From positions 1-53,162 of IMG/VR virus record IMGVR_UViG_3300036766_000094: 53,162 nt of DNA. One strand, 5' to 3'. Positions within the stretch are counted from its first letter, which is position 1. Every line of letters starts with the position of its first letter. The notes under the pieces were generated by a model, which was given only the letters and a program-made list of their open reading frames with translations, did not search any database and had not been told where the DNA came from. Both the position numbers and the translations under genes were made by a program. Below are positions 3,753 to 23,163 of this stretch, piece by piece. Origin of the DNA: a virus (Duplodnaviria > Caudoviricetes).

Positions 3753-3754
3753 AA

Positions 3755-6887: not shown

Positions 6888-6915
6888 AATAACTCTCCAT
6901 AAAAAGTAAGAAGTT

Positions 6916-7030
6916 GCGAGCTAACAAGACGAGTCCGGTGTCCGGTCCCCGAAATTTCTCTATTGGACCAGGCTCGGGGTTGGCGGCCTGAATGAGGCTT
7001 CGCGATAGCTCAGTTCGTCTGTTAGCTCGC
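6916..7030 (-). ncRNA. putative structured RNA closed by a 16-bp stem
   Basis: GCGAGCTAACAGACGA pairs with TCGTCT(T)GTTAGCTCGC; internal helices CTGGTCC/GGACCGG and CTGAG/TTCAG; GC-rich intergenic. Confidence 0.65.
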
Positions 7031-7033
7031 CAA

Positions 7034-7127
7034 TATATCGGGTGAGAGTCGAACTCACAATTCACTATTTATTAGAATCGCCATACTAATAAATAGCACT
7101 CCTATCCAATTAGAGTAATCCGATATA
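7034..7127 (-). ncRNA. tRNA-like RNA with a 12-bp extended stem in place of the anticodon arm
   Basis: Acceptor TATATCGG/CCGATATA, D-loop AATTGGAT, T-arm GTGAG-TTCGACT-CTCAC, central GCTATTTATTAG/CTAATAAATAGT. Confidence 0.75.
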
Positions 7128-7135
7128 CCAATCAG

Positions 7136-7633: not shown

Positions 7634-7651
7634 AAAAACTCCTTAAATGGG

Positions 7652-8545: not shown

Positions 8546-9511
8546 TTAGTCCTCTTCACCAATTGATGTAAAATCCCAAGGCTTACGAATAAATTCCGTT
8601 TGTAAAGAACTTTTAATTCCTTCTTCGGAAGCGCTACAACAAGTCTTTCTAAATGGACAACGATAACAAGACTTCTCATTCATGGGCCAAACATCTGTTT
8701 CACGACAACGTTCTAGCGATTTATGATACTCAATTTGTTCTTTCTCCCACATTTCCAATTGCCAAGCGGAACGTGTTGTTAAGAATTGTTTCAAATATGG
8801 GCCTGGATTTGGTTTATTAGAACCGTCTCCAATGTCTGTTTTGTTGTTAGCAATAACTAAAACAAATTGCCCTAGTACAACTTCTCCATGATTCTTGCCT
8901 TGAATGTATGTATAACGAGAGAATTGGTCGTTTGGTTCTAATGATCTTTCAAAATACTTTAACTTTTGACTAGTTGTTTTGAAGTCGCGGCCTACTAATC
9001 TTCCATTCCATCTAACTATTTGGTCGGAACGCCCACCAATTGTATTACCGTCTGGAAGAACTGTGTTGATAATTTGTTCAGAAGCAATTACTTCTACTTT
9101 ACCTAATTTCTGTTCTTCGACGAAGAAATCTATTAACAATTTACATGAGAGAATTAGACGTTGTAATGATAAGAAATCATACTTGGCTCCAGGTTGAATC
9201 ATCAATGGACTGATGTTCTTATTATGATAATCCATTGCAGCTTTGAATGCTAGTTTATTACGAGCGTCTACTGGAAGATCTATATTCTTAAACCACAATT
9301 CTACGCACAAATGAAGAGCGCTTCCAAATGCAAAATACGGTGGAGACTCCCTGTCTGCAAAACCAAGAACCATTCGATAGAAATACTTTCTAGGACACGT
9401 TTTGTATTCATTCAAGGCACTAGAATCTATCATTATTGGTTCACATCTAGGTAAATCCTTTAAGAATGTTATGTTTTTATGTTCTTTAAATTGGTTCAAC
9501 TTCTCCTCCAA
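8546..9511 (-). CDS. PD-(D/E)XK Cas4/RecB-like exonuclease
   Basis: CPRKYFY, FGSALH, GRSD, DFKT and C-terminal CxxCP.R..C. Confidence 0.88.
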   Translation of the reverse strand: MEEKLNQFKEHKNITFLKDLPRCEPIMIDSSALNEYKTCPRKYFYRMVLGFADRESPPYFAFGSALHLCVELWFKNIDLPVDARNKLAFKAAMDYHNKNISPLMIQPGAKYDFLSLQRLILSCKLLIDFFVEEQKLGKVEVIASEQIINTVLPDGNTIGGRSDQIVRWNGRLVGRDFKTTSQKLKYFERSLEPNDQFSRYTYIQGKNHGEVVLGQFVLVIANNKTDIGDGSNKPNPGPYLKQFLTTRSAWQLEMWEKEQIEYHKSLERCRETDVWPMNEKSCYRCPFRKTCCSASEEGIKSSLQTEFIRKPWDFTSIGEED

Positions 9512-9885
9512 ATTACATTTAAGTATTCTTGAACACGTGGGTGATTTATGTTGTATTCATTATCAAACTTAGATGAACCTAACCATTGATTACAAAGATT
9601 TATGTACTTTACACGGAGCCTTTTTGCATTATACTTTGTAATGTACGTTAATATCAAGAATTCATAAATTGTATGAATAATTGCATGACAATTTCTACAA
9701 ATCTTTACACAGTGAAAAAATCGTCTGTAATTACGCCTAATTGAATGATTATAACGGCCTAATAATCTGTCATTTCCTTTGTGGTGTCGAATTATATCTG
9801 TTGTACTACTACACTTAGCACAACGTTTTATTGTTATTGTACTTAAATCAAACTTCTGCTTCTCCTTCTTCTTCATAATTAGCAT
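9496..9885 (-). CDS. HNH endonuclease
   Basis: CAKC...RHH...CRNCHAIIH. Confidence 0.7.
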   Translation of the reverse strand: MLIMKKKEKQKFDLSTITIKRCAKCSSTTDIIRHHKGNDRLLGRYNHSIRRNYRRFFHCVKICRNCHAIIHTIYEFLILTYITKYNAKRLRVKYINLCNQWLGSSKFDNEYNINHPRVQEYLNVIWRRS

Positions 9886-10102
9886 CTACACTTCCAGATG
9901 TGATAGATTTCTTAAGTTCTGCTGCACCAATCTCAGCTAGTTCTACTGGAGTGTGTTGGTGTGTTTTCCTGAACGCGGCTAGTAGCAATCCCATAATTCT
10001 ACTGAAATTGCGTTTGCCATAAGCTATTTCAGCCCATTTTACGTCGGATTCTGGTAAATCAATATAACGTCTTAATGTTCCAGCTTTAAGGGTTGCGCTC
10101 AT
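9848..10102 (-). CDS. small hypothetical protein, possibly ribbon-helix-helix DNA binder
   Basis: RRYIDLPE strand followed by two predicted helices; weak. Confidence 0.5.
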   Translation of the reverse strand: MSATLKAGTLRRYIDLPESDVKWAEIAYGKRNFSRIMGLLLAAFRKTHQHTPVELAEIGAAELKKSITSGSVDANYEEEGEAEV

Positions 10103-10233
10103 TTATTGTTATTGCCATCCATGATGAGTAATATAGTGTAAACGCCACACTAATCTAGTCCAAAATGGTACTTCTTTCCATCCGTTCCAACAATGAGAGC
10201 AGCTACAAAAATCATAGCATGGGCCAATATCAA

Positions 10234-10797
10234 TCATTTTGGTTCCCAAGCCAAATTATCTTTATCTTCAATAGTTATGGTGATACCGGCTTCTTCTTGA
10301 TTTATGATAAACAAATTATTCTTCTTACAATACTCATAAAGTTGTTTCATTTGAACATCGTTTAGTACAACTTGTGGAAAGTATACTTCTTTTGGATTGT
10401 TTTGCACAAGAAACCCAACAATCTGTTCAACAGACAAGGCTTCTTCCAGTATTTGCTTTCCCATTCTAAGAGCTTTTTGTGATTCTCTTTCGATAGGTGT
10501 TCTTGCTCTTGGTTTGACAATTAACCATTCATTTTGTGTACAAATTTTGAAGGTTAATGTTAAGTCTTTGTATTGTTCATAACCCTTTACCTTGCTACAA
10601 AACATAATAGCTGTCCGTAACGCACGAGCTAAAGTTTGAGCATTAGTTTCAACTTTCCACTTTAATTCCTGCGTCCGGTTTGCATTCATCGCCTCCAGAT
10701 ATGGAAGCAGGCGTTGTATCAAAAGTTCTCTTGTCGTCATAATATCCAACGCCTTTATTTCCAATAGAGTGATATTGTAATAGCTTAAGAGCTTCAT
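10234..10797 (-). CDS. hypothetical protein (start probably MTTRELL at 10740)
   Basis: Long ORF in the minus-strand operon. Confidence 0.65.
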   Translation of the reverse strand: MKLLSYYNITLLEIKALDIMTTRELLIQRLLPYLEAMNANRTQELKWKVETNAQTLARALRTAIMFCSKVKGYEQYKDLTLTFKICTQNEWLIVKPRARTPIERESQKALRMGKQILEEALSVEQIVGFLVQNNPKEVYFPQVVLNDVQMKQLYEYCKKNNLFIINQEEAGITITIEDKDNLAWEPK

Positions 10798-10987
10798 TCA
10801 TTGAATTGATTGCGTCTTGTTCTACTAACTTTATCATTGTTTTGTAAGCCGATTTGATATTAACATTATCTTCATTGTGTTCTCTGTCTTCTAACCAATG
10901 CTTCAAATCTCGTATTCGTACAACCTCATCGAATACTCGGATAATCTGCCACAAGCCTGGTGCGTTTGTAGTAGTTACTTGGATCAT
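10649..10987 (-). CDS. hypothetical protein
   Basis: ATGA overlap with the upstream gene. Confidence 0.55.
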   Translation of the reverse strand: MIQVTTTNAPGLWQIIRVFDEVVRIRDLKHWLEDREHNEDNVNIKSAYKTMIKLVEQDAINSMNEALKLLQYHSIGNKGVGYYDDKRTFDTTPASISGGDECKPDAGIKVES

Positions 10988-11259
10988 TCTTTCTTCTCAA
11001 ACTCAATGAATCCATGATTAACATAATGTGCAATGTATAACCATTTTGTGATAACTTGTGCGGCTTTCATCAGTATTGGTTGTTGTAAGCTCATTAGTCC
11101 CATGTATTCAACTGCAAAACACAGTATGTCCCAATTAGTTAGTTCTTTGTTCTGTCTTAATATTAGTAATACTTTTTGAGCCCTTTGTCCAGGGTCCAAT
11201 GTAGTCTTATCTACTTCTTTCATTAACTCTTCGGTTATTTCGTTTGATTCTTCAGTCAT
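10984..11259 (-). CDS. hypothetical protein
   Basis: Packed ORF in operon. Confidence 0.6.
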   Translation of the reverse strand: MTEESNEITEELMKEVDKTTLDPGQRAQKVLLILRQNKELTNWDILCFAVEYMGLMSLQQPILMKAAQVITKWLYIAHYVNHGFIEFEKKE

Positions 11260-11485
11260 TTTCTTTAAATGAGAATGAGTTAATATGACTGGCTAATCTT
11301 TCAGCATATTGTTGGTGGAATTCCTTCAATAATGAATCCGGAACTCCAAGCCAACCAATTGGTTCATTATTATGGTCTACAAATACTCCAGTTGAGCCCA
11401 TCCTTCTTTCTACTCTAGCTGTCAGCTTCAAGCCGTTTAATGAATCCACGGCGTTCTTTGGTCTGTCCTGTTCCATATTTCTCAT
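11252..11485 (-). CDS. hypothetical protein
   Basis: Packed ORF in operon. Confidence 0.55.
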   Translation of the reverse strand: MRNMEQDRPKNAVDSLNGLKLTARVERRMGSTGVFVDHNNEPIGWLGVPDSLLKEFHQQYAERLASHINSFSFKEND

Positions 11486-11816
11486 GTTCTTTCTCTTTTA
11501 GATATGTTAAAAATGCTTGTACTAATCCGTCTGGACCGCTGTAAATTGGAATACCAGAACTAACTGTGAGCTTGTCTGCTTTAATGTCACACAGCGTTTC
11601 TAACATATCATAGATGTTAGCGGCCTTTTGTAGTCCTAGACTAATCAATAAAGCTGCACAACTAGACCAAGCTTGTAATGGACCTCCAGCTTTACCAATG
11701 TTCAGTCTAACTTCTACTGGATTGCCTTCATCATCTTCAATAATATGTACGAATAACGTACCGTCTGGTGTTTCTACTCGTACACTATATGTTTGCATTG
11801 AATCACTGATAGTCAT
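11415..11816 (-). CDS. stand-alone TSCPD-like domain (class II ribonucleotide reductase C-terminal module)
   Basis: VETPDGTLFVHI...PVEV.LNIGKAG...ISLGLQ...I.SGPD. Confidence 0.72.
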   Translation of the reverse strand: MTISDSMQTYSVRVETPDGTLFVHIIEDDEGNPVEVRLNIGKAGGPLQAWSSCAALLISLGLQKAANIYDMLETLCDIKADKLTVSSGIPIYSGPDGLVQAFLTYLKEKEHEKYGTGQTKERRGFIKRLEADS

Positions 11817-12043
11817 AAAAATGATAATTGCTTTCTTTCTTTTTCAAATTTTATTGTTTTTGTAATGGTTTCTTTGATTGTATATTGTTTGTTTGGTATT
11901 GACTTGTAAATGTAACCTTTTCTTGGTTTGAAGCCGAAAATTAATTTGAAGTCTAAAATATTGAAGTCTATAAATTCTGTAGTATGAGGCAGCGTAAGAA
12001 AAACTTGAGTGTTTACTCGTTCTAATGTAATATGAGGTCTCAT
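11813..12043 (-). CDS. hypothetical protein
   Basis: Start/stop overlaps with both neighbours. Confidence 0.5.
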   Translation of the reverse strand: MRPHITLERVNTQVFLTLPHTTEFIDFNILDFKLIFGFKPRKGYIYKSIPNKQYTIKETITKTIKFEKERKQLSFL

Positions 12044-12387
12044 TATTCAAGCTCAATTTCTGGAAGCTTAAGCTCCTCGACTTCTGCAATTTCCAACTTC
12101 TCTGGTTCTTCATCAATTATTGGCGGCTTAACATCTTCAACAACTTCCGGAATGTCTTCATCTTTATCTAGTTGATTAATTAGATTTTGCAATTCAGAAG
12201 CCGAGCTTTCAGAACGACTATTGGGCGACCAATAGCATTCATCCAAGTCGGATTCCATTTTGAATATTAGTTTATCAACGAGCGTGCGAATTACTGGCTC
12301 GCTGAATTTGGCATGAACTAAAGCGGCTTTGAGACTACCGAAGATACTATTACGGACATCTTCGTCTTTCTTTTCATCATTTGGCAT
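12043..12387 (-). CDS. acidic hypothetical protein
   Basis: AGGA RBS; Glu/Asp-rich C-terminus. Confidence 0.6.
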   Translation of the reverse strand: MPNDEKKDEDVRNSIFGSLKAALVHAKFSEPVIRTLVDKLIFKMESDLDECYWSPNSRSESSASELQNLINQLDKDEDIPEVVEDVKPPIIDEEPEKLEIAEVEELKLPEIELE

Positions 12388-12445
12388 TTAAGTATTTCCT
12401 ATTTATGATATGGTATTTCTGCGTCAGTATCATCTATTACTTTAA

Positions 12446-12916
12446 CTAACCAACCGTCGTTCTAGTGATAGTACCGCCTTGTTTGTCTAAGAAAGCATCT
12501 CGTATGATGCGTCTACCTTTATTACCAGGAAGTGGAATTTGAAAGTGCAACCAATGAGCACCATCTTTAGCGCTTTCTTCTAATATCAAATCAAAATCAA
12601 TGTCAGGATTATTACCTATTAAATGTTGCGCTGTATCAAATCCAATTCCTTGAGGTGGATGAAAGTCAAACGCACATCCTTGCATATGATAACTATTCTT
12701 AGAACCACCTACATGAGTATTTAATTCTAAACAACGATAACCACTTAGAATCTTAATAGGTTGATTGCCTAGTGAAGCTCGTATTTTTTCATATTGAATT
12801 GCTAATCTATCAAAATTGTTACGTTCGATTGGTCCTGGCAAATTCAAAATACCCAAACGTTTAGCTGTTGGGCTTTTTGTCATTTCTTCTAGAGTTAGAT
12901 TTGGACTTAAGTTCAT
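12446..12916 (-). CDS. peptidase M15A-type endolysin (Zn D-Ala-D-Ala peptidase fold)
   Basis: LSPNLTLEEM, SGYRC..LN..VGG..NS.H..G.A.D, WLH. Confidence 0.9.
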   Translation of the reverse strand: MNLSPNLTLEEMTKSPTAKRLGILNLPGPIERNNFDRLAIQYEKIRASLGNQPIKILSGYRCLELNTHVGGSKNSYHMQGCAFDFHPPQGIGFDTAQHLIGNNPDIDFDLILEESAKDGAHWLHFQIPLPGNKGRRIIRDAFLDKQGGTITRTTVG

Positions 12917-12938
12917 TTTAATTCTCCATTTTTGTGAA

Positions 12939-13021
12939 TGCCGCGAGAAGGAGTCGAACCTTCAAGCCATTTCTGGCGACGGATTTTGAGTCCGTTGCGG
13001 TTGCCTTTTCGCCACCGCGGC
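12939..13021 (-). tRNA. tRNA-Leu (anticodon CAA), no encoded CCA
   Basis: Acceptor GCCGCGG/TCGCGGC+A, anticodon arm ACGGA-CTCAAAA-TCCGT, long variable arm GCCA-GAAA-TGGC, T-arm GAAGG-TTCGACT-CCTTC. Confidence 0.95.
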
Positions 13022-13024
13022 TTT

Positions 13025-13095
13025 TTGTGGGAGGTATGCAGGGATAATCTTTCGATTATCGGCTCGTCTCCGGGATAAGTCCACGCCTCCCACAA
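13025..13095 (-). ncRNA. putative structured RNA immediately 5' of tRNA-Leu
   Basis: TTGTGGGAGG/CCTCCCACAA closing stem; internal GATAATC-GAAA-GATTATC tetraloop hairpin. Confidence 0.6.
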
Positions 13096-13102
13096 TTTTT
13101 TG

Positions 13103-13312
13103 CTAGACTGTGCCTTGTAAAGCTATTGCGGCGTTAGCTGTCATTACTGCTTCACGTATCTTCCGAATAGCCGCCGTTTGATCTGCACAAGCTGGTGTGT
13201 TAATAAGAACAACAGTTGCAAATTCCCTGGCGGCTGCTCTAATATTGTTGTACAATGGAATTTGTTCAGGCCGTGGAGAATGATATGTGAAAATCTCTTC
13301 CACGTTAATCAT
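13103..13312 (-). CDS. Acb2/Tad1-like cyclic-nucleotide sponge (anti-defence), putative
   Basis: FTYHSP..EQ..Y..IR..A...AIRKIREAVMTANAAIA helical hairpin pattern recalled for this family. Confidence 0.6.
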   Translation of the reverse strand: MINVEEIFTYHSPRPEQIPLYNNIRAAAREFATVVLINTPACADQTAAIRKIREAVMTANAAIALQGTV

Positions 13313-13566
13313 GTGGTTGTGTCCAACCTTTCAGCCTTATGAGCCAATCCTAAAGCCGCCAAAGCACCACCAATATTAGCGACGATTGTACTAATTCTAT
13401 CAGCTTGCGTTGGAGCAACTAAACCAACGGTGGCAGTTACTAGTCCAGCGTGAGCAACCGACCAAAGTATTGCCCCGGTAATCGTCTTCCAGCCACGACC
13501 CAAAAATGAAAACATTTTATTCTCCCTTTTAAATGATCCATGCATCTTCTCGCACAATGTATCCAA
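13309..13566 (-). CDS. small two-helix membrane protein, holin candidate (start probably MFSFLG)
   Basis: GWKTITGA motif, two hydrophobic segments, LGLAHK end; near the endolysin. Confidence 0.6.
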   Translation of the reverse strand: MDTLCEKMHGSFKRENKMFSFLGRGWKTITGAILWSVAHAGLVTATVGLVAPTQADRISTIVANIGGALAALGLAHKAERLDTTT

Positions 13567-13975
13567 TTAGTGCTGATGTTACGTTATATTCTCTCGCCAG
13601 CCGCCTGTAAAATCTTTTGTAGTATCCTTTTGTAAGACCACAAGCTACTACACGCCTTCTAATTTCTGTTACTTGGCTAACTGTCAACTTTGCTGAAATC
13701 CCGCGTCTTACATTTTCTTTGTGAGAAACTACTTCTAAGTGCATTGGATTGCAACAAGAGTGATTTCTGCATAGATGATCTAACTCCATTCCTTCGGGTA
13801 TAATTTCTTGAAGCGCTTCATACATAACTCTGTGTGTACGTCGTAATTTTCTATGAGATCTTATATAACCATAGCCATCTTTTGTGGCGCCTTGCCACAC
13901 CCAGCATTCGTTTTCATTAACAACGCAACGAGACTTGATAATTTCTGGTAATTGAGATTTAAAGTTAGTTTTCAT
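13529..13975 (-). CDS. HNH endonuclease (HNH_3 type)
   Basis: CWVWQG...GYG...HRV...LDHLCRN..C.NP.HL....EN. Confidence 0.92.
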   Translation of the reverse strand: MKTNFKSQLPEIIKSRCVVNENECWVWQGATKDGYGYIRSHRKLRRTHRVMYEALQEIIPEGMELDHLCRNHSCCNPMHLEVVSHKENVRRGISAKLTVSQVTEIRRRVVACGLTKGYYKRFYRRLAREYNVTSALIGYIVREDAWII

Positions 13976-15306
13976 AAATACAACATCTGTTTAACCGCTT
14001 CACTTTCAACATGAACCAGTCTTTCATTAAACACTTGTGATAATGTCATCTCCCTCATTGGAGGCTCATTTAGAGCGTGTTTGATAATTATATTAAACTC
14101 GGCTGCTATAGAAGGCCATTCTCTTAGGGTTATAACTGGGTTAGTTCTTAATCTAGACAAATTGCAAATCTTATTAACTAAATCACTAACAGATATGCGT
14201 CCGTGCATTGTGTTTACATTACTATAATGAAAACCATGTGGCTTGGTACGAATCCTAGCATCCTCTGACCAGATTTCTCTTGTTGCTGACCAATCTGGTA
14301 CTAATTGAGGTACTCCAACTTGCCAACCTTCAATTGCAGGGAGTCCCCAACCTTCACCAGTTGATGTATTAATTTGAACGTCTGCACACTTATACAACAT
14401 AAATAATTCAATTTCTGTTAGCTTATCTGTGAATATAGTAATGTTGTCATTTGTTAAATTGAGTAACTTTATCAATTGCTTCAAATCCCAACCAGTTGTT
14501 TGGTCGCCTTGCGCGTGGAGAACTAAGTGAGCATCAGGAATGAAATCCAAAACTCGGCTGAATGCTACTAATGTTAAGTCTAGGCGTTTACGAAAACTAT
14601 TCGTATTAACGTTTAGAATGATGAAAGCATCTTTAGGTAAATTGACTTGTTCACGAGCTTTTGCTTTTGTTATAATGTCTGGAACAGGATTAATTCCAAT
14701 TGGAACAACATTGATGTTAGTCTCATTCTGAAAAGCTGCTAATCTATCTAGACGAACCACTACATTATGAGCCGAATCCTTTAGACTAATTGTTCGCGTT
14801 GGTTCAGTTTCGCTCAAGCCAGGTTTCATTTCAGTTAATGCTGATTGAACACTTGCTACTAATTCTCTAGCACCAAAATGCGTTGGAGTTACTACATTAC
14901 TATGAAGACCTAAACCAAAACCATAAATCCACTTTAGATTTGGACTGTCCGGTAATGTATATATTACGGATGGTAAGTCAATTGGTTTTTTTGCTGCTAA
15001 AGGTAAAACATTCCAAACGTCTTGGATGAATAGAATTACATCTGGTTCGGTTTCTTCGAGAATATTATTGAAATAACCCAAACCCATGAAATCTTTAGAT
15101 GGATTTAACGTAGCGGGAATTACGGGAAATGTATAGTAAGCAACATCACGTTGTCCATAATAACCAATACCAGCTACAGTTAAATCGTAATAGTCCATTA
15201 AATTAGTAGCCAAACCGCGTGTGATTTTTTCAAATCCGGTGGGTTGGCCGGCATCGGCATAAATTAATAGTTTAGGCTTACTCATTATTACTCTCAAAGT
15301 AAGCAC
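13972..15306 (-). CDS. GT-B (GT4-like) glycosyltransferase; start probably MSKPKLL
   Basis: PTGF, N..RKR, ADV.IN.S.GEGWGLP.IE...GVP. Confidence 0.9.
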   Translation of the reverse strand: MLTLRVIMSKPKLLIYADAGQPTGFEKITRGLATNLMDYYDLTVAGIGYYGQRDVAYYTFPVIPATLNPSKDFMGLGYFNNILEETEPDVILFIQDVWNVLPLAAKKPIDLPSVIYTLPDSPNLKWIYGFGLGLHSNVVTPTHFGARELVASVQSALTEMKPGLSETEPTRTISLKDSAHNVVVRLDRLAAFQNETNINVVPIGINPVPDIITKAKAREQVNLPKDAFIILNVNTNSFRKRLDLTLVAFSRVLDFIPDAHLVLHAQGDQTTGWDLKQLIKLLNLTNDNITIFTDKLTEIELFMLYKCADVQINTSTGEGWGLPAIEGWQVGVPQLVPDWSATREIWSEDARIRTKPHGFHYSNVNTMHGRISVSDLVNKICNLSRLRTNPVITLREWPSIAAEFNIIIKHALNEPPMREMTLSQVFNERLVHVESEAVKQMLYL

Positions 15307-15449
15307 TTAGGATTACTGTTCCAAAGATGGCTATTAGAGCGACGATAATTATAACTAGGACTTTCATTTTGCGTTGTTCGCTTTATAGATGTTTGAAATA
15401 TTCATAGCAAAACTACAGACAAACGCGATTATAAGGCAGACCATTATTA

Positions 15450-15662
15450 TCATATCTTCGGCTTCTCAATCTTATCAATAAGTTCACAACAAGGATTGTT
15501 ACAGAATACTACTTTGGAAACTTCTGTTGGAAAACCACCTTTTGCTAAAAACTTGTTGTCTCCAATTGTACGGACTGGAACGACTAGATTCTTAGCAGCA
15601 ATTTTTATCTTGTGAGCACGTGGAGTTATTTCTAGGTGTTGTTCGATTTGGAGTAATTTCAC
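15450..15662 (-). CDS. hypothetical protein
   Basis: GTGA overlap with the upstream ORF. Confidence 0.5.
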   Translation of the reverse strand: MKLLQIEQHLEITPRAHKIKIAAKNLVVPVRTIGDNKFLAKGGFPTEVSKVVFCNNPCCELIDKIEKPKI

Positions 15663-15880
15663 ATCGTCCCTACTCTAATTTCAGATTTTGGCCTGCCAGA
15701 AAGAATTCTGTCCAGCTCTAAGCGAAATGATTCTGGATACACTACTTGTTTCTTAAATGGCCGATTTGTGTAAGCACGGAATAAGTCTCTAATATCTTCG
15801 TTTGTGATTGTATATTTAATCATTGTGCCGCGTCTAAATAAAGAGAGTCGCGGAATGAACGAGTAAACAAAGCACCACAT
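15659..15880 (-). CDS. hypothetical protein (start probably MIKYT at 15823)
   Basis: Packed ORF. Confidence 0.5.
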   Translation of the reverse strand: MWCFVYSFIPRLSLFRRGTMIKYTITNEDIRDLFRAYTNRPFKKQVVYPESFRLELDRILSGRPKSEIRVGTM

Positions 15881-16110
15881 TCAGGTCTGGCTAACAACAT
15901 GTTGATTAATTCATCTTTAGTTGTAACGTGATGGAACAAAGGATTGCAAGGAATTACTGTTGGAGCTTTGTGTAACACAAAAGGCCGCCTCGTTTGAAGA
16001 AAAGCGGCAATTGCTGTGATTACTAGAATTGTGAATAACATACCAAATAGCACTGTTATGTTGTGTTCTTTATTATTTCGTTTGACTGTAATATTAAATG
16101 GCTGAATCAT
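15820..16110 (-). CDS. single-TM hypothetical protein
   Basis: Hydrophobic stretch ITVLFGMLFTILVITAIAAFL; GGAG RBS. Confidence 0.6.
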   Translation of the reverse strand: MIQPFNITVKRNNKEHNITVLFGMLFTILVITAIAAFLQTRRPFVLHKAPTVIPCNPLFHHVTTKDELINMLLARPECGALFTRSFRDSLYLDAAQ

Positions 16111-16141
16111 ACTTAGGAACTCCGGTAGCTATTGAAGAAAA

Positions 16142-16282
16142 AAGAATCGTGTAGCACCAATCTTGTTTGCACGTAATTCTTTTGACAACAAGAGTTTGAT
16201 ATAATTGGTCCGGTTTTCAGTTGTTCCATTACGTTGGGTAGACTGAGTGGTGCCAATTACCTATGATGCTACACGAATTCTT
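16142..16282 (-). ncRNA. structured RNA unit 6: multi-stem junction with kissing loops
   Basis: Closing stem TCGTGTAGCATCA/TGGTGCTACACGA; inner stems TAATTGG/CCAATTA, TCAGT/ACTGA, TCTTGTT/AACAAGA; loops ACGTAAT and ATTACGT are complementary. Confidence 0.75.
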
Positions 16283-16292
16283 GTATTTTAGA

Positions 16293-16393
16293 TTGAGGGA
16301 GAATAACTAGACCAGTTATGCAATTTTGGTCAAGCCACGTCCACTATAGCTTATTGCACTTCACTATAGTTACTAGGTTACATTCTCCCTCAA
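16293..16393 (-). ncRNA. structured RNA unit 5: three-way junction with kissing loops
   Basis: TTGAGGGAGAAT/ATTCTCCCTCAA; hairpins ACTATAG/CTATAGT and GACCA/TGGTC; loops GTGCAAT and ATTGCAT can pair. Confidence 0.75.
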
Positions 16394-16394
16394 A

Positions 16395-16467
16395 TGACGC
16401 CCGTGGGAATTGAACCCACAACTTCCTGATTAAAAGTCAGGTACTCTACCGATTGAGTTAGAGCGTC
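16395..16467 (-). tRNA. tRNA-Lys (anticodon TTT), no encoded CCA
   Basis: GACGCTC/GGGCGTC+A, D-arm ACTC-AATCGGTA-GAGT, CCTGA-CTTTTAA-TCAGG, GTGGG-TTCAATT-CCCAC. Confidence 0.96.
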
Positions 16468-16479
16468 TTTTACTTTTGT

Positions 16480-16577
16480 AAGGCAGCTTGACAGGTTATG
16501 ATAACTCTTTTTCCCTGTTAACTCTATTAGATGTTATCATTTTACGCCAGGTGCGAGGATACAACCTGCCAAGCCTT
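16480..16577 (-). ncRNA. structured RNA unit 4
   Basis: GCTTGGCAGGTTGT/ATAACCTGTCAAGC (14 bp, two G-U pairs on the minus strand); inner ATGATAAC/GTTATCAT. Confidence 0.7.
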
Positions 16578-16583
16578 TTTACT

Positions 16584-16713
16584 TTGGAGAGTGTGAGTTT
16601 TTGTTGACCGTTTTGACTCACTAGGCGAGTCGTGGCAGGAATTCACCAACGGGATACGCGCCGCCGCTATAGCTCAAGTCATTATTATAAGACGCGGCTT
16701 TTTGACTCTCCAA
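16584..16713 (-). ncRNA. structured RNA unit 3 (multibranch)
   Basis: TTGGAGAGT/ACTCTCCAA; inner GCCGC/GCGGC, CCGTT/AACGG, GACTCGC/GTGAGTC. Confidence 0.68.
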
Positions 16714-16725
16714 TTTTCAAAGAAC
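16714..16725 (-). promoter_or_regulatory. boxA-like antitermination site
   Basis: GTTCTTTGAAAA resembles rrn boxA and directly follows a hairpin (16730-16770). Confidence 0.6.
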
Positions 16726-16729
16726 AATT

Positions 16730-16770
16730 GTGGGGATGTTACTGACACCGTTTTATTGGTACATCCCCAC
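16730..16770 (-). ncRNA. hairpin unit 2 (boxB-like position)
   Basis: GTGGGGATGT/ACATCCCCAC. Confidence 0.65.
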
Positions 16771-16777
16771 GGGCAAC

Positions 16778-16864
16778 AAACTTGTGTGGAACACTACATG
16801 GAATCCTTACAACTTTGTTGTGTTATCTCCAGTAGTCGCGTTTTAGACTCGCCCACACAAGTTT
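16778..16864 (-). ncRNA. structured RNA unit 1
   Basis: AAACTTGTGTGG/CCACACAAGTTT; inner ACTAC-TGGA/TCCA-T-GTAGT and ACAAC/GTTGT. Confidence 0.7.
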
Positions 16865-16934
16865 TGTTTCTACTGTTTTAGATTCCTCAAGTTTCCTCAC
16901 TTTCAATTAGTTTGTTTTCCCTATTGTGCCTCTC

Positions 16935-16963
16935 AATCTAACATGACCAGCCCAAAAACGCAA
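16935..16963 (-). promoter_or_regulatory. sigma70-type promoter for the RNA array
   Basis: TTGCGT-17 nt-TAGATT with extended TG; same TGyTAGATTGA core as the promoters at 21167 and 22536. Confidence 0.75.
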
Positions 16964-16972
16964 GGGCCAATC

Positions 16973-17075
16973 CTAGAGCCTCTAGGGCGGTCTAGGCTCC
17001 AATCTTCATACTTGAATCTACCTAGCGGCCCTTGCCAATCCGTCGTGCGCCCTAGAGGCTCCTAGAGCGTTCTAG
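16973..17075. repeat. seven helically phased CTAG tetramers in a symmetric array
   Basis: CTAG at 16973, 16982, 16992, 17022, 17052, 17062, 17072. Confidence 0.8.
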
Positions 17076-17089
17076 ACCCCTTGCGGGAG

Positions 17090-17106
17090 CGTGTCAAAAT
17101 GACACG
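17090..17106. promoter_or_regulatory. palindromic operator-like site
   Basis: CGTGTCA-AAA-TGACACG; near copy at 21217-21232. Confidence 0.6.
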
Positions 17107-17110
17107 GAAT

Positions 17111-17437
17111 TCACGGTATTACTTTGGCTGCTTCCTTATCTTGCCACCTTAAATAACGCTTGAAAATACGTTTGGCTCGATTGGTTAATTGATAGCCATA
17201 TTCATCTTGCATTAGTTCTCGTAATTCTTGACGCTTTCGGCTAATTGATTCATTAATAGACGACATACTCAAAATCTCTTTCATTCGCTTTCCATTCTTA
17301 CGCCAATCTCTTCCTTTGTTTTTTGCGTTGCGGAATATTTCCGCTGCACTATCTCCGGTTAGTTTGTGTTTAGCAATCGTTATGATTGCTGCTATTAGTC
17401 CGGCTTTGCGTAGTCTGGAACCGCCTTTTATGGACAT
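17111..17437 (-). CDS. basic hypothetical protein
   Basis: Arg/Lys-rich ORF; GGAG RBS. Confidence 0.6.
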   Translation of the reverse strand: MSIKGGSRLRKAGLIAAIITIAKHKLTGDSAAEIFRNAKNKGRDWRKNGKRMKEILSMSSINESISRKRQELRELMQDEYGYQLTNRAKRIFKRYLRWQDKEAAKVIP

Positions 17438-17671
17438 TTATAGTTGCTCCTGACAATGTGATAAATCTTTACGTAGTTGTATGTTGTAATTTCGTAGGCG
17501 GACATTCTCCATCATGGCCTCGTCGTAGAGGGCACAAACTTCGTTGAATGAATCTGTGACTTGTACGATGTTATGCCGAACGTTTGCATGTTCAGCCGCG
17601 CCGTAGGCGGCCAGCGCCTCGCGGAAGGGGTCAGACATTTTAACTCCTCCTGAAAAAGTTATTCTTCGCAT
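17438..17671 (-). CDS. hypothetical coiled-coil protein (start probably MSDPF after AGGAGGAG)
   Basis: Strong RBS; locally GC-rich. Confidence 0.6.
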   Translation of the reverse strand: MRRITFSGGVKMSDPFREALAAYGAAEHANVRHNIVQVTDSFNEVCALYDEAMMENVRLRNYNIQLRKDLSHCQEQL

Positions 17672-17859
17672 ACTTCATAATGTGAGTCACGAATAACAAC
17701 ATTAGCACCGTTTGATACTTTGGTCATCACATCTGCAAGAGCTTTAGCACACGCAAAGGTTGGTTGTGGGCCGCTACGTGATTCTTGTGGAACATAAGTA
17801 CAAACATAAAATGGTGGTTGCGGTGGCATAGTAAGTTTTTGATTAGTATAATGTATCAT
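17659..17859 (-). CDS. hypothetical protein
   Basis: AGGAGGT RBS. Confidence 0.6.
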   Translation of the reverse strand: MIHYTNQKLTMPPQPPFYVCTYVPQESRSGPQPTFACAKALADVMTKVSNGANVVIRDSHYEVCEE

Positions 17860-17861
17860 AA

Positions 17862-18152
17862 TTACCTCCTGAAAAAGTTGAATCCCAAAGCTTCTTGTTC
17901 TTTGGACCTATCTTTACTAGATGGACTTTGTATTTCTATCATCTTCCAAACTGGAAGGTATACACAATTACTGTTAGCTAACCACCAGTTATGGATAATT
18001 CTCAAACGCAAATTCAAATACGGTTCACTTTTGAAATGCAACATTGTTCTGTCATCACTCGTAAACTTCATTAGGAGACCGTTCATTTGGATGGCTCCTT
18101 GAACAGATGAAATATTACTGTCCAAAAAATCCAGCCGAAATGAAATGTCCAC
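17862..18152 (-). CDS. hypothetical protein (start uncertain)
   Basis: Co-oriented ORF. Confidence 0.45.
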   Translation of the reverse strand: MDISFRLDFLDSNISSVQGAIQMNGLLMKFTSDDRTMLHFKSEPYLNLRLRIIHNWWLANSNCVYLPVWKMIEIQSPSSKDRSKEQEALGFNFFRR

Positions 18153-18277
18153 TTTTTCTGTGTGTATCCTCCATATCTTAACGGAGGGAAGACTCTAAGA
18201 AATGGTAGAACATCGAAGGCACAACCTCTTGAGCCTTTCTTATCAAAGTTGTATACACTTTCCCAGAAGATTTTCAT
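18083..18277 (-). CDS. aromatic-rich hypothetical protein
   Basis: AAGGA RBS. Confidence 0.5.
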   Translation of the reverse strand: MKIFWESVYNFDKKGSRGCAFDVLPFLRVFPPLRYGGYTQKKWTFHFGWIFWTVIFHLFKEPSK

Positions 18278-18302
18278 TTGACAACTTCCTTTCGGTTTAG
18301 TG

Positions 18303-18512
18303 TCAAAATGCCTCTAAACTCTCTACGTCCATGACGCAATTTATAAACATTTTCGGTGCGTGTAGGTCTGTTCTATCTTTGAGTAAAAATACTTCTTTTT
18401 CGCGAACGTGGCCGAAGTGTTTCAGTACCGTTGCCGCTTCTTCAACGCTTGACGAATTGACTACTACTAAGTTCGTTCCATCTAGTTGATAATTCATTAT
18501 CTTTTCCTCCAA
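18303..18512 (-). CDS. hypothetical protein
   Basis: GGAGG RBS before MNYQL, coupled to the helicase stop. Confidence 0.55.
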   Translation of the reverse strand: MEEKIMNYQLDGTNLVVVNSSSVEEAATVLKHFGHVREKEVFLLKDRTDLHAPKMFINCVMDVESLEAF

Positions 18513-20623
18513 GCTTTCTTGCTCATTTCTTCTTTGAGCATTTTGATTATATCTAAAGCCATAGATGAATTACGAACACTATTCAAATCGTCAATGGTTC
18601 CACTTACTAATGCAAACTTCCTTGCTCTTAAATCCGCTATCCAATCTTCAATTGTGTTGGCGGCATTTAGATAGTAGCTATCTAGTCCGTGCTCATTAGA
18701 TAATCTTCCATACGCGCGCCCTTCGCATTGTTCGTGATAAGCTGGCGCCCACAAAGGGTCAACAAATATAACCGCCATTGCTTTGTCTAAGTCTAATCCT
18801 TCACGAACGGCCATAGAACTACAAACTGCAAAATGAATAGACTTAGAAGTTTGGAACTCTTCAACTAATTTCATACGTTCAGAGAATTCAACTTCACCAG
18901 TTATAGTAATAGCTTCTCCACCCAAACGCTTTGCAATTGCGTGGCAAGTACCTACGAATTGAGAATAGATTAGGATTTTATTCTCTGTTTCGTCGTAATA
19001 ATTCAATGCTGTTTCAACCGCGTGTTCGATTTTATCATCGGAGCAGATTTGTTTTAAACGGGTAATTTGAGCGAGTATTGATGTAATAGACATTTCATTC
19101 ATCAAAGCGCCAGATAGTTTATCTATTTCTTCATAAACTCCAGCTAATGCTTTTTCATATCTCATGCGCGCATTGTCGCTTAATTCGTGAGACTCGTCTA
19201 TTCTATTGATTGGTGGCAAATCTTTCTGGACTTCGGATTTCAATTTTCTTAGCATAAATGGTTTAAGCATTTCCTTAAATGCTGTAGGATTCCGGCAAGT
19301 TCCTGTGTTGTATTCCCATTGATACACGAAACCGTCGTAATTATTAAACATTTCTGGGTTAATGAAACGTAAAGCTGTGAAAGCTTCACGGGGTCTATTA
19401 ATTATTGGTGTTCCGCTTAGTAAAGAACACTTACCTATGTTGCTCATTTGAATTGCGGCTTGTGCTCTAGCTGTAGTTGGGTTTTTCATGTAGTGATATT
19501 CATCGAAAATGATTCTGTCGAAACCAGCTAGATTCAAAACCAGAACCCAAGGCCAAATTGTTTGTTCGGTTACTTTCTTTGTTCCATTATCTGATGATTC
19601 TATGTTACGTTTAATCTTAGCAGCTAGCGAGTCATAACTAATAATGACCCACTTGTAATCTTTCTTTTTCAATATCATGTTAGTTAAATATTCTGTTACA
19701 CGTTCTCCATCTATGATTAAGCTATGTTCATTTGTGAATTTGTAAATCTGGCGAGCCCAATTGATTCTTAGAGAAGCTGGACAAACTACTAGATTGTAGG
19801 ATTGCTCCAAATAAGCAATACTAATTGCCATTGGAGTTTTTCCAAGTCCTGGCTGATGACCTAAAATTCCCCTCTTAGTAACTTGGAGAAACTTACCACC
19901 AACCTTTTGAAACGGTCTTAATGTCATACCATTTGGAAACTTCGGGTCAAACTCTGGACAATCATCTAACTGAGCTATTGTGTCAGCTAGTGCGCGTGTT
20001 TCTAATTCGGAAGTTATTAGCTTATTGGCTTCTTCTGTCCATTGTACCCAAGTTATTGGAAACTTGTGTTCTTCAGCGTGAGAACGTAATGTAGTGAAAA
20101 GAATATAGCCTTGGCTCAACTGGACATTATACTTAGATTCGCCAGTTGAAGCTATATTACCTAGGTGTTTGTAACCATCGACCCTTCTAATTATTCCGCT
20201 ATCGGCTTCTGGACTTATTAAGATTTCCAAATTCTTTTTGGAAGTAGAAACGTCAATTGTGTAGTGTGGACCGTTCAGTATACGATAAAACTTCTTCTTC
20301 AATACATCATCTTTGAAACGGATTTGACTGCTATCAAAATGTTCCATAAATGTCGGCCACATTAAGACATTTACAGCCACATATTCGGGATAGCTGTAAA
20401 TACCTTTCTTATATAGCTCATTATGTAATTCGGAAGATATTGGACGTGAAGGTTTCATATAAAAAACCATTCCACTTATTTGGTACATTCCCAAAAAGAA
20501 TGGTTTCCTAGATTCATCTTCTAGAATAGCTGAATCCCAATCAGCTAAATATTGAGTCTTAATGGCTCTCAATTCAGCTAAACGCTTTTCTAGTTGTTCG
20601 ATTTCTTCGTTTGGATTAGTCAT
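18497..20623 (-). CDS. SNF2-family (SF2) helicase/annealase
   Basis: LRPFQ, QPGLGKT, VVCPASL..NW, DEYH, LSGTP..N, EGLDL, Q.EGRAY.R. Confidence 0.93.
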   Translation of the reverse strand: MTNPNEEIEQLEKRLAELRAIKTQYLADWDSAILEDESRKPFFLGMYQISGMVFYMKPSRPISSELHNELYKKGIYSYPEYVAVNVLMWPTFMEHFDSSQIRFKDDVLKKKFYRILNGPHYTIDVSTSKKNLEILISPEADSGIIRRVDGYKHLGNIASTGESKYNVQLSQGYILFTTLRSHAEEHKFPITWVQWTEEANKLITSELETRALADTIAQLDDCPEFDPKFPNGMTLRPFQKVGGKFLQVTKRGILGHQPGLGKTPMAISIAYLEQSYNLVVCPASLRINWARQIYKFTNEHSLIIDGERVTEYLTNMILKKKDYKWVIISYDSLAAKIKRNIESSDNGTKKVTEQTIWPWVLVLNLAGFDRIIFDEYHYMKNPTTARAQAAIQMSNIGKCSLLSGTPIINRPREAFTALRFINPEMFNNYDGFVYQWEYNTGTCRNPTAFKEMLKPFMLRKLKSEVQKDLPPINRIDESHELSDNARMRYEKALAGVYEEIDKLSGALMNEMSITSILAQITRLKQICSDDKIEHAVETALNYYDETENKILIYSQFVGTCHAIAKRLGGEAITITGEVEFSERMKLVEEFQTSKSIHFAVCSSMAVREGLDLDKAMAVIFVDPLWAPAYHEQCEGRAYGRLSNEHGLDSYYLNAANTIEDWIADLRARKFALVSGTIDDLNSVRNSSMALDIIKMLKEEMSKKAWRKR

Positions 20624-21084
20624 TTTCCTTTTTCCTGAACCAAAAAACCAACAATGTTAGCCGTCTCTTCGTGAATTGCTTGTTTCATTGCTAGTATGTC
20701 GGGGCGATTGCTAGTACGGGATAGTATTAAGCCCGTCCTATGTTTGGCTCTAACAACGTATTCATATGTAAAATCGGATTCAGCTATTGCGACTACGGGA
20801 GTTGTAACGCGGATTGTTTGGGATTGTTTCAACATACCTAAAGCTTGTTTCAACGTGTGGAAAATAGACTGTGCGTCCATTCTTTCCATTGTGCTTATGA
20901 ATTCTTTTCCAAGAATTATTAGAAACTTTTCAACGTTTTCTTGAGTGTATCTATTAACATGGACGCCGGTAAACTCTCCATTTATTACTACACTTACATT
21001 GTCTGCATTGACGTGATACTCTGGAGCCAGGCGCTCTATTAGGACTGTTAGAGCCAAGTTAGACTGTTCGCGTATTGTGGACAT
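20620..21084 (-). CDS. hypothetical early protein
   Basis: First ORF after the 21167-21195 promoter; ATGA overlap with the helicase. Confidence 0.7.
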   Translation of the reverse strand: MSTIREQSNLALTVLIERLAPEYHVNADNVSVVINGEFTGVHVNRYTQENVEKFLIILGKEFISTMERMDAQSIFHTLKQALGMLKQSQTIRVTTPVVAIAESDFTYEYVVRAKHRTGLILSRTSNRPDILAMKQAIHEETANIVGFLVQEKGK

Positions 21085-21166
21085 TTTTACATTTCCCCGG
21101 AGAAATTGTTATGTTCAAACAATCTTCGCAAACGGTCTTTAGAAATAAGCACAATACAAGCTATTC

Positions 21167-21195
21167 AATCTAACATAGTCCCGAACCAGTGTCAA
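21167..21195 (-). promoter_or_regulatory. sigma70-type early promoter
   Basis: TTGACA-17 nt-TAGATT with extended TG. Confidence 0.85.
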
Positions 21196-21216
21196 GTATG
21201 CGCCTTTGGCAGTAGT

Positions 21217-21232
21217 CGTGTCATAATGACAT
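21217..21232. promoter_or_regulatory. palindromic operator-like site upstream of promoter
   Basis: CGTGTCA-TAA-TGACAT, flanked by TTGGCAG/CTGCCAA. Confidence 0.6.
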
Positions 21233-21320
21233 CTGCCAATTCGGCATACATTTAGGTGTTAGTTATTCACATTAACTAGTTTCACAAACTATTATGTTGT
21301 GTTGTGTATTAATGACACAA

Positions 21321-21614
21321 TACCATGTGGTCCGCCCCAGCCTTCCACGCCGGGCCATCCGTGCCGGCAAGGATAGGGGGGGGCCACCGTGGCCCTCGGT
21401 ATTAGTATTGCGGACTAATAGTCCTATGATATAATATATTATCAAATGAGTTAGTTTCTTATTCTTTTCTTTTTTATTTTTTTTTTTAATATATAAGAAC
21501 AACAACCGCCCCAAATATTACTATTTATTTTCAATCTAGGGGGGTAGGGAGCCCCCCCCCATCCGCGCCGGCAAAGTATGCCCGGTAAGGATGGTAAGGG
21601 CGGACCATATGGTA
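21321..21614. repeat. long imperfect GC-rich inverted repeat around an AT-rich core; candidate replication origin or genome end
   Basis: TACCATGTGGTCCGCCC...GGGCGGACCATATGGTA, continuing via CCGGG/CCCGG, GCCGGC, GGAT/ATCC and G-run/C-run; poly-T core. Confidence 0.8.
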
Positions 21615-21632
21615 CGTGAAGATGCTGAAGCC

Positions 21633-21680
21633 AAAGATTAGATTAGAAAAAGATTAGATTAGAAAAAGATTAGATTAGAA
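21633..21680. repeat. three tandem 15-bp repeats AAAGATTAGATTAGA(A), iteron-like
   Basis: Direct reading. Confidence 0.85.
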
Positions 21681-21748
21681 ATTAACTGGATTGAAAAAGA
21701 AATAAAGTTCACATATAGTTGTGTTCGCTGTATTGATTTTGGAATTGT

Positions 21749-21768
21749 CAATTAGAATATTCTAATTG
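21749..21768. repeat. perfect 20-bp palindrome
   Basis: CAATTAGAATATTCTAATTG. Confidence 0.8.
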
Positions 21769-21881
21769 TTCCTATCTTTTTGTCCATTTCGATTTGTCAA
21801 AGAATTGTCAAAGAAAAAAAGGCTCATTTTATCCGTTGAGGATTGACCAAACTAACTAAGGGGCAAGGCAACTAGGTTTAG

Positions 21882-22418
21882 TTAAAACTTCGTTCCCATC
21901 GCATTGAGCGCCAAAACTGCTTCCACAATTGCGGCGTTCTTTGCGGCGCGGTCGGAATCGGAGAGTTCCGACTTGACTTCCGACATAAGGGAGTCAAGTG
22001 TTGCCGAAACTGCCGCTTTCTGTGCGCGAGTCGAAACTTCCGGACGGACTGTCTTATCCGCCGCTGAAGTTGCCGCCTCTTGTGCTTGGCTTGTCCAGTC
22101 CGCCAGCGTTCCGGCGTTAACCAATTCCGTTTCGGGAATCTTCAACTCCGAAACCGCCGCGCGAGCCGCCAAACCCTTCGCTTCGTTAACGGCCCCGGCA
22201 ATCACTTCGGGAACGGAAATGTCGAAGGAAGCGCAGTAGTCTAGCGCGTCCGCGTCGCTCTCGAATTGAATTCCCTCAACGATAAAGGGAATGTTACCGC
22301 GTGCATTGTTCGGAGATTCTTTGCCGGACTTCTTGTCTTTCGTGACTCCAGACGTTGCCGTCACGAATTCCGCAAAATGGTCAAGGGTTGCCTTGACTGC
22401 CAGCTTGATGCTACGCAT
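21882..22418 (-). CDS. GC-rich Ala-rich hypothetical protein, first gene of the early arm
   Basis: GAGGAG RBS and own promoter; no recognisable domain. Confidence 0.8.
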   Translation of the reverse strand: MRSIKLAVKATLDHFAEFVTATSGVTKDKKSGKESPNNARGNIPFIVEGIQFESDADALDYCASFDISVPEVIAGAVNEAKGLAARAAVSELKIPETELVNAGTLADWTSQAQEAATSAADKTVRPEVSTRAQKAAVSATLDSLMSEVKSELSDSDRAAKNAAIVEAVLALNAMGTKF

Positions 22419-22507
22419 AAGAAAAACTCCTCTAGGTGTATGATGATACGGCGCCGTATCGTACCTACCGTGTCACTTCGCTACACCTAGCGCCTTGCCC
22501 CTAGTCA

Positions 22508-22521
22508 GTTGTCAAAGAGCG
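22508..22521 (-). promoter_or_regulatory. boxA-like antitermination site
   Basis: CGCTCTTTGACAAC a few nt downstream of the predicted start site; two more TTCTTTGACAA copies at about 21794-21815. Confidence 0.65.
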
Positions 22522-22535
22522 TTCAAGCCTTCCTC

Positions 22536-22564
22536 AATCTAGCACCAGCCGCGCCGTTTGTCAA
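22536..22564 (-). promoter_or_regulatory. sigma70-type early promoter
   Basis: TTGACA-17 nt-TAGATT with extended TG. Confidence 0.85.
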
Positions 22565-23163
22565 GTGTGGCGCCGGCGCAACGTGCTAGCTCGCTACCTT
22601 TTGCTGAGCGAAAAGCCACCGCGAATGATCAACGTTTCACAGGCGCATTCCGTTACTGGCTTTCTGCACTGTGTACAGACTGGAATCCGCTTTGGGGCTG
22701 GCATCTTTGATACCTCCAGGTTGAAGTCTCAGGACAAAGGAAAACTATTGCAAGTTTAATGCCAAACTCTTCAAGGTGGCTTTTTGCGAAAGGAATTAAT
22801 AAGTATGGCGCGCACGCCTCAACTGTTGCACACGAACGCCACAGTATTTTGCAATGCAAACAATTGCGCGACTCCAGCTTGACTAGTTGAGAATGAAAAT
22901 CAAAATCAACTAGCGCACCGAATGACTGACCAGCGTACAACAATGACTAAGGTCTAATCATATACTCTAGTCAACTTAGACCGGGGGAGGGGTAAAATTC
23001 ATCTATGAAAAACCCCCTAACAGACCTCAACAATTTGTTTAATAAAAATTTTTTGTAGTAAAATTTATTTTTTTGTGTATATTCTTTTTTTCTTTATCTT
23101 AATTCTTCCTATTCCTCTTTTTCTTCTCGTTCCTCTCAATACCTTGAAGCCACCATTTGCCTC

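Follow-up and report, generated by a model that had tools for sequence, protein, structure and literature searches.

The 53,162-bp record IMGVR_UViG_3300036766_000094, a whole IMG/VR virus record rated 100% complete and analyzed here at full length as the window, comes from a tailed phage and contains a gene-free stretch (positions 16111-17110) in which folded modules, each closed by its own long stem, are tiled around a tRNA-Lys gene. This stretch is non-coding, its predicted fold is exceptional and modular, the tRNA within it is real, and the same layout recurs beside tRNA genes of related phages. We tentatively favor the view that the modules are co-transcribed with the tRNA, are cut free by tRNA processing and act mainly in cis as processing or stability caps.

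The stretch extends from the stop codon of open reading frame (ORF) 17111..17437 to the ATG, at 16110, of ORF 15820..16110. No ORF in it reaches 60 aa, as an earlier reading of the letters alone (the sequence-only reading) had stated for about 800 nt of it; with both strands considered, the maximum is 59 aa (16702..16881, plus strand, opposite to the tRNA, with a TTG start). None of its six small ORFs had a PHROG match, and a coding function was rejected on these grounds. The predicted fold was far better than expected from composition: the minus strand of 16130-16970 (841 nt) folded at -255.1 kcal/mol with a z-score of -6.89, and 0 of 20 shuffled sequences folded as well; the plus strand gave -246.1 kcal/mol and z -4.98. 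Four coding stretches of the same length, used as controls, had z-scores of -0.75, -1.50, -0.95 and -1.07, and two other intergenic regions of the genome, both without tRNAs, were unstructured (z -0.33 and -1.24). The exceptional structure claimed by the sequence-only reading thus held against shuffled controls, and the cassette fold is real and modular.

The tRNA-Lys has the anticodon UUU, does not encode CCA and was recognized on the minus strand by both ARAGORN and the Rfam tRNA model, which supports the proposed tie between the cassette and a tRNA on the gene strand. Around it we found the six stem-closed units described previously (U1-U6), with z-scores from -3.0 to -4.8 when each unit was folded alone against 200 shuffles, and to these we added two further units, U0 and U7 (Table 1). 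The closing stems of U1-U6 are 9-17 bp long and the linkers between them are 1-15 nt and A-rich on the minus strand. U4 ends 14 nt from the tRNA-Lys, the U5 stem begins 1 nt past the last base of this tRNA, and U7 is located 3 nt upstream of tRNA-Leu. The longest repeat common to the units is 17 nt and partial, consistent with the earlier statement that the stretch is neither a CRISPR array nor a tandem repeat. On the gene strand, GNRA tetraloops cap two hairpins (GCAA at about 17080 and GAAA in U7). This tetraloop is an RNA-specific motif, and two examples are weak evidence because they are only two. With regard to U0, it is CTAG-rich, and four of the six CTCTAGG sites of the genome fall within 96 nt (16972-17067), where, directly before the putative promoter, they make up a perfect 15-bp palindrome as well as an inverted repeat of 14 bp; these could be operator sites or simply the U0 stem.

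Table 1. Features of the tRNA-Lys cassette and of other loci of the phage genome
Feature	Positions	Strand	Score or basis
Pair of small hairpins immediately following the stop codon of ORF 17111..17437; GCAA (GNRA-type) tetraloop on the second	17067..17110	minus	z -1.78
U0, 95-nt stem-closed unit, 14-bp perfect closing stem	16972..17066	minus	-44.0 kcal/mol, z -4.01
Putative promoter of the sequence-only reading (TTGCGT, 17 nt, TAGATT)	16935..16963	minus	weak match
Purine-rich, C-poor leader (63 nt), unstructured	16868..16930	minus	z -0.03
U1, three-way unit, 93 nt, 12-bp Watson-Crick closing stem	16775..16867	minus	z -3.89
U2, hairpin, 10-bp stem	16728..16773	minus	z -3.84
U3, four-way unit, 131 nt, 9-bp closing stem	16584..16714	minus	z -3.19
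U4, 96 nt, 15-bp closing stem including three G-U pairs	16481..16576	minus	-29.0 kcal/mol, z -2.98
tRNA-Lys, anticodon UUU	16395..16467	minus	ARAGORN; Rfam tRNA 73.9 bits (cut-off 29)
U5, three-way unit, 102 nt, 13-bp closing stem	16293..16394	minus	z -4.32
U6, three-way unit, 141 nt, closing stem of about 17 bp	16143..16283	minus	z -4.79
U-rich run UUUUUCUUC directly after the U6 closing stem, followed by GGAG and the ATG of ORF 15820..16110	16134..16142	minus	
U7, 71-nt stem-closed unit, 10-bp closing stem, inner hairpin with GAAA tetraloop	13022..13098	minus	-28.5 kcal/mol, z -4.69
tRNA-Leu, anticodon CAA	12939..13021	minus	ARAGORN; Rfam 53.1 bits
Acb2/Tad1 hairpin-domain protein, 69 aa	13103-13312	minus	Pfam E 1.2e-12
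Glycosyltransferase, also GT4-conflict-like	13972-15306	minus	GT4-conflict E 7.6e-05, below family cut-off
SNF2 helicase	18497-20623		Pfam/PHROGs
DNA polymerase A pieces, UDG/exonuclease, Cpn10, M15 peptidase, HNH endonuclease			Pfam/PHROGs
Large terminase, SU10-type portal and adaptor			Pfam/PHROGs

Relatives of the phage were distant. A search of IMG/VR with the helicase alone gave no kin, and alignments of helicase and terminase together gave kin at no more than 49% identity, that is, at the family level (helicase 34-38% identical, terminase 39-49%). The closest relatives at the protein level were Logan contigs, with a helicase at 58% (P0122, on a 14.8-kb contig) and terminases at 70% (P0002) and 62% (P0003). 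In a phage GenBank collection, a distant blastn search with the stretch matched the tRNA alone, in one record. A pattern search spanning the tRNA T-arm and the beginning of U5 matched only one related phage, the complete 53,730-bp record G001, and a search with the Cpn10 of G001 gave one further relative, which has no Lys cassette. G001 shows the same order of helicase, tRNA-Lys cassette, tRNA-Leu, Cpn10 and UDG/exonuclease. Its cassette is an ORF-free region of about 900 nt running from tRNA-Lys(UUU) to tRNA-Gln (z -6.59 on the gene strand, -5.45 on the other), and it comprises two hairpins (z -5.7 and -5.8), tRNA-Lys(UUU), about six stem-closed units (z -2.9 to -0.9) and tRNA-Gln. The pairwise alignment of the two cassettes is limited to the tRNA and the first 8 nt after it.

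The modular layout, as distinct from its sequence, was also found beside tRNAs in other relatives. In G002 a stem-closed unit of about 122 nt lies 3 nt upstream of tRNA-Leu, the tRNA-Arg of L004 is flanked by units on either side, three units surround tRNA-Gln and tRNA-Lys in G026, and tRNA-Pro and tRNA-Ser of L007 likewise have units around them. By our own reading of the cassette and its kin, most junctions examined have a module within 1-6 nt of the tRNA end. Structural conservation in relatives, which the sequence-only reading had called for, was therefore seen at the level of layout (G001, G002, L004 and G026).

Two of the claims made earlier did not hold. G-U pairs had been taken to point to the minus strand, but the energies of U1-U6 sum to -195.1 kcal/mol on the minus strand and -194.8 kcal/mol on the plus strand (-32.0, -21.1, -42.3, -22.9, -32.0 and -44.5 kcal/mol for U1 to U6, respectively, on the plus strand). 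Nearly all pairs in the helices are Watson-Crick, and only U4 and U5 favor the minus strand; for U4 the plus-strand values are -22.9 kcal/mol and z -1.40. Since there is no overall G-U signal, assignment of the gene strand rests on the tRNA and on the orientation of flanking genes; genes at 6..22943 are on the minus strand, and structural genes are on the plus strand from 23261 onward. The second claim was a promoter at 16935-16963 serving a dedicated operon. It agrees with the sigma-70 consensus at 7 of 12 positions, counted by hand, against a scan threshold of 9 of 12, although the promoter type of the host may differ. The scan itself returned four promoter-like sites against 3.5 expected by chance, and this site was not among them. 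Moreover, the G001 cassette starts 6 nt past the stop codon of the upstream ORF, which leaves no room for a promoter, so the cassette there must be co-transcribed with its neighbors. At the other end, a terminator scan found no sites, but its loops were limited to 3-8 nt, whereas the U6 helix (~17 bp) closes a 140-nt three-way junction before UUUUUCUUC; this run may be a terminator tail.

How the cassette would work can be outlined from these data and from general knowledge of bacterial RNA decay and polarity, to which the cap, Rho and RNase E steps below belong. We infer that the 1-kb gap is an untranslated but transcribed segment of the leftward early/accessory gene block, and that its RNA would form self-contained modules, each closed by a long helix and separated by short linkers, around tRNA-Lys(UUU). 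RNase P and RNase Z would excise the CCA-less tRNA, and the modules, lying 1-14 nt from the tRNA ends, would remain as helix caps that resist 3' exonucleases and 5'-end-dependent RNases. The folded untranslated stretch may also deny Rho and RNase E their single-stranded entry sites, and folded flanks may keep the tRNA from mispairing with neighboring sequence. Selection would then act on the fold rather than on the sequence, and some freed modules may in addition persist as stable small RNAs. The layout recurs at tRNAs while the sequence changes, which is the pattern expected if the fold itself is selected, and for this reason we favor the cis role. The same design at the other canonical tRNA of the phage (U7 with tRNA-Leu) also supports it.

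Several observations weigh against this proposal. The helices are nearly pure Watson-Crick and the units fold equally well on the opposite strand, with mixed strand results in kin, so that selection at the RNA level on the gene strand is not demonstrated. The only sequencing run found to contain the window was a sediment-metagenome DNA run, probably its source, and no RNA run was found to contain it. (Contigs of this DNA run mapped on the window showed no variants, and extra depth was seen only on the tRNA, from other organisms.) A cis cap needs one hairpin per side, and six or seven multi-branched modules, occupying about 1.5% of the genome, are not explained by it. Kin also speak against a strict rule: the tRNA-Lys of G005 has a flank of only about 80-115 nt, and G001 has another structured intergenic region with no called tRNA (z -4.6). 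Structured modules and tRNAs can thus each occur without the other. In L007, L084, L008 and L010, genes fill the whole syntenic region that follows the helicase.

It is possible, though doubtful, that the units are instead distinct stable small RNAs acting in trans, for example as decoys or sponges for host defense nucleases or RNA-binding proteins, and form part of a counter-defense kit; this was close to the role proposed by the sequence-only reading, which also considered antitoxin mimics. The phage invests heavily in these units, and their multi-branched folds go beyond the complexity of simple caps. Neighboring genes are of a counter-defense type: the Acb2/Tad1 protein and the GT4-conflict-like glycosyltransferase are both located between the tRNA-Lys and tRNA-Leu loci, and Acb2/Tad1-type proteins sponge cyclic-nucleotide defense signals. 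Rapid sequence turnover would fit an arms race. There are also precedents in other phages: in T5, a phage tRNA-Lys counters the tRNA-Lys-cleaving PARIS system (PMC11464382); the C4 RNA of P1/P7 is a non-tRNA phage RNA released by RNase P (PMC11143913); and in phage K abundant long non-coding RNAs adjoin tRNA genes (PMC9241854). On the other hand, no direct evidence for such a role emerged. No unit matched an Rfam family, and no unit had a sequence relative in 47 related phage records, where matches with E<0.01 came from four records and all lay in the tRNA part. A covariance model of U5 (R1) gave a best E value of 6.8 over 13 loci (165,574 bases) and 0.26 on G001 with filters off. Except for the closing stems, a search of the rest of the phage found no complementary or repeated stretch of at least 12 nt, and Pfam detected no partner RNA-binding or RNA-processing protein in the 75 ORFs scanned (all Pfam negatives below refer to this set; PHROGs was also run on the phage proteins). 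What stands of the sequence-only reading is that the cassette is non-coding, structured, modular and linked to a tRNA.

We consider it unlikely that the units are DNA-level or neutral palindromes with no RNA function of their own, collected in a tolerated non-coding spot. They could have come from tRNA genes that decayed and left their flanks behind as tRNAs turned over rapidly, from template switching that created inverted repeats, or from small mobile elements bounded by terminal inverted repeats. The closing stems, long and for the most part perfectly Watson-Crick paired (14 bp in U0, 12 in U1, 10 in U2 and 10 in U7), are consistent with this explanation, as is the lack of net strand asymmetry, which is expected of repeats arising by DNA copying; in addition, the sequence is not conserved and kin differ greatly in unit count, with 0-1 in some and about 8 at most. 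However, the units are not multi-copy, either in the phage or in the 47 related records. None was found in four metagenome-assembled genomes (MAGs), and 301 sampled genomes of one candidate host phylum yielded three marginal single matches outside the tRNA; the host itself could not be firmly called, as a search of prokaryote genomes gave five MAG contigs with mixed labels (an archaeon, three Acidobacteriota and a Bacteroidales). Miniature inverted-repeat transposable elements and REP- or ERIC-type elements were rejected on the same copy-number data. No target-site duplications were seen by eye, and no transposase or integrase was detected by Pfam. End-to-end tiling and 1-3 nt abutment to tRNAs in several phages of unrelated sequence would not be expected of neutral palindromes, and elsewhere in this genome the two intergenic regions lacking tRNAs showed no structure. 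The GC skew does not point to a replication origin at the cassette.

A more specific proposal, which we regard as quite improbable, joins several of these elements: this uncultivated soil/sediment phage family would carry fast-evolving islands of modules fused to tRNAs, which host tRNA-processing enzymes would cut into nuclease-resistant small RNAs acting in trans, for example as decoys for tRNA- or RNA-targeting defense nucleases, alongside a counter-defense tRNA-Lys. If true, this would be a new RNA-based layer of phage counter-defense, defined by architecture rather than by sequence.

The Rfam 15 scan, a check suggested by the sequence-only reading, returned only tRNA-Lys and tRNA-Leu at the gathering threshold, and a relaxed search (E up to 10) over 15900-17300 gave nothing credible beyond tRNA-Lys. 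This result argues against GOLLD, ROOL, Y RNA, known ribozymes, riboswitches and CRISPR repeat families. With tRNA and tRNA-like models (E up to 10), U1-U6 gave only a tmRNA fragment of 10.1 bits at 16728-16768. It is highly unlikely that the cassette forms one large RNA of several domains that encloses a tRNA and is functionally analogous to GOLLD or ROOL: like them it is phage-borne, highly structured and ORF-less, lies at a tRNA island and, at about 820 nt with its tRNA embedded, has the location and about the size of these RNAs (next to phage tRNA genes, 500-800 nt), GOLLD itself can carry a tRNA in its linker, and the full-length minus-strand fold pairs the purine-rich leader with the U-rich 3' tail, but the GOLLD and ROOL covariance models had no match even at E up to 10, the predicted fold consists of independent stem-closed local domains in series rather than long-range junctions around one conserved ornate core, and no conserved core is held in common with the syntenic G001 cassette or other kin.

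Other candidates were rejected on specific grounds. A CRISPR array or solitary-repeat anti-CRISPR RNA is inconsistent with repeats of at most 17 nt, with a best CRISPR direct-repeat match of E 1.4 (21 bits against a cut-off of 44) and with the lack of Cas proteins. A plus-strand 17-nt word at 16866-16884, with a weaker copy at 16278-16294 (82% identity), has what we take to be a resemblance to the repeat handle of class 2 CRISPR; the idea was dropped because there was no Rfam CRISPR match at this site and there were no cas genes. A type III antitoxin RNA (ToxI-like) was rejected since the units are unrelated in sequence and no toxin family occurs among the neighbors, and a bacterial Y RNA or YrlA since there was no Rfam match and no TROVE or RtcB domain. 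Against an integron attC array, Pfam detected no integrase or recombinase and no common end motifs were seen by eye, although an attC model was not run. Reverse transcriptase, Ro60 and RNase III were likewise not found by the Pfam scan. A replication origin at the cassette was rejected because the GC-skew minimum is at the divergent junction, 22-23 kb.

Phage tRNA islands host enigmatic RNAs such as GOLLD, ROOL and the T4 stable RNAs, and to our knowledge none of these has a known function. The T4 'species 1 and 2' RNAs and the stable RNAs of the T5 tRNA region are reportedly small RNAs co-transcribed with phage tRNA operons. They resemble the present units in being structured non-tRNA RNAs of about 100-140 nt that lie within a tRNA transcription unit and are freed by tRNA-processing enzymes; in contrast, the cassette has six to eight modules with a single tRNA, has no sequence relation to them and is known from DNA alone. 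Intercistronic processing or stabilizing hairpins are another known kind, and include the RNase III sites of the T7 early region, REP/BIME, ERIC and Correia elements, and the processing stems of rRNA operons with spacer tRNAs. In these systems, too, long helices in transcribed intergenic RNA direct cleavage and protect ends, and rRNA operons have tRNAs placed between stem-enclosed domains. However, they are sequence families or simple hairpins, whereas the modules described here are unique, multi-branched, 45-140 nt long and not multi-copy. Both phage tRNA-island RNAs and processing hairpins are known kinds, and the tiled layout is what we did not find described: our literature search, which did not extend to supplements and older T4/T5 papers, gave no account of stem-closed modules tiling the flanks of phage tRNAs. 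A further likeness is to the P4 CI RNA and to the P1/P7 C4 RNA (PMC11143913), small RNAs that are excised from a longer transcript and closed by an acceptor-like stem in which the 5' end pairs with the 3' end. C4 and CI act by complementarity between a loop and a target within the phage, and for the cassette no target of at least 12 nt was found.

Additional tRNA-like elements were observed outside the cassette. At 7034-7126 on the minus strand, ARAGORN called a 93-nt 'tRNA-???' with a four-base anticodon; its predicted fold has a 10-bp acceptor-like stem, a D-arm, a T-arm and a 12-bp anticodon stem with a 10-nt loop, and it is below the threshold of the Rfam tRNA model. Either a decayed tRNA or an unusual tRNA-like RNA could account for it. 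Beside called tRNAs, L007 (about 5390-5515, plus strand) and L003 (about 2200-2340, plus strand) have tRNA-like units not called by ARAGORN, with a clear T-arm, a long acceptor-like stem and a greatly extended middle arm.

Elsewhere in the genome, a 16-nt unit (UCUAAUCUAAUCUUUU, minus strand) occurs in three tandem copies together with a run of nine G at about 21630-21685 on the minus strand, in the gap 21515-21881, an otherwise unstructured intergenic region close to the GC-skew minimum; these repeats are a candidate iteron or origin region. A G+C island at 24001-26000 (57%, against roughly 36-45% elsewhere in the genome) spans the coding sequence of a 798-aa protein in which invasin/Big_1 repeats are combined with a beta-helix, and has the look of a receptor-binding or depolymerase gene acquired recently. 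The 1765-aa protein encoded at 45442-50739 on the plus strand matches the ADP-ribosyltransferase domain of polyvalent proteins weakly, below the cut-off, and may be an ejected internal virion protein.

The tiling of tRNA flanks suggests a rule that can be checked across the lineage, namely that self-closed RNA folds, free to change in sequence, tile the non-coding DNA beside tRNAs. If the modules are released small RNAs, they would represent a new class of phage RNA effectors, and one that covariance-model searches would miss by construction because only the architecture is conserved. If they are cis-acting caps, they would show how phages embed tRNAs in operons without wrecking the mRNAs of neighboring genes, which would be useful for both annotation and engineering.

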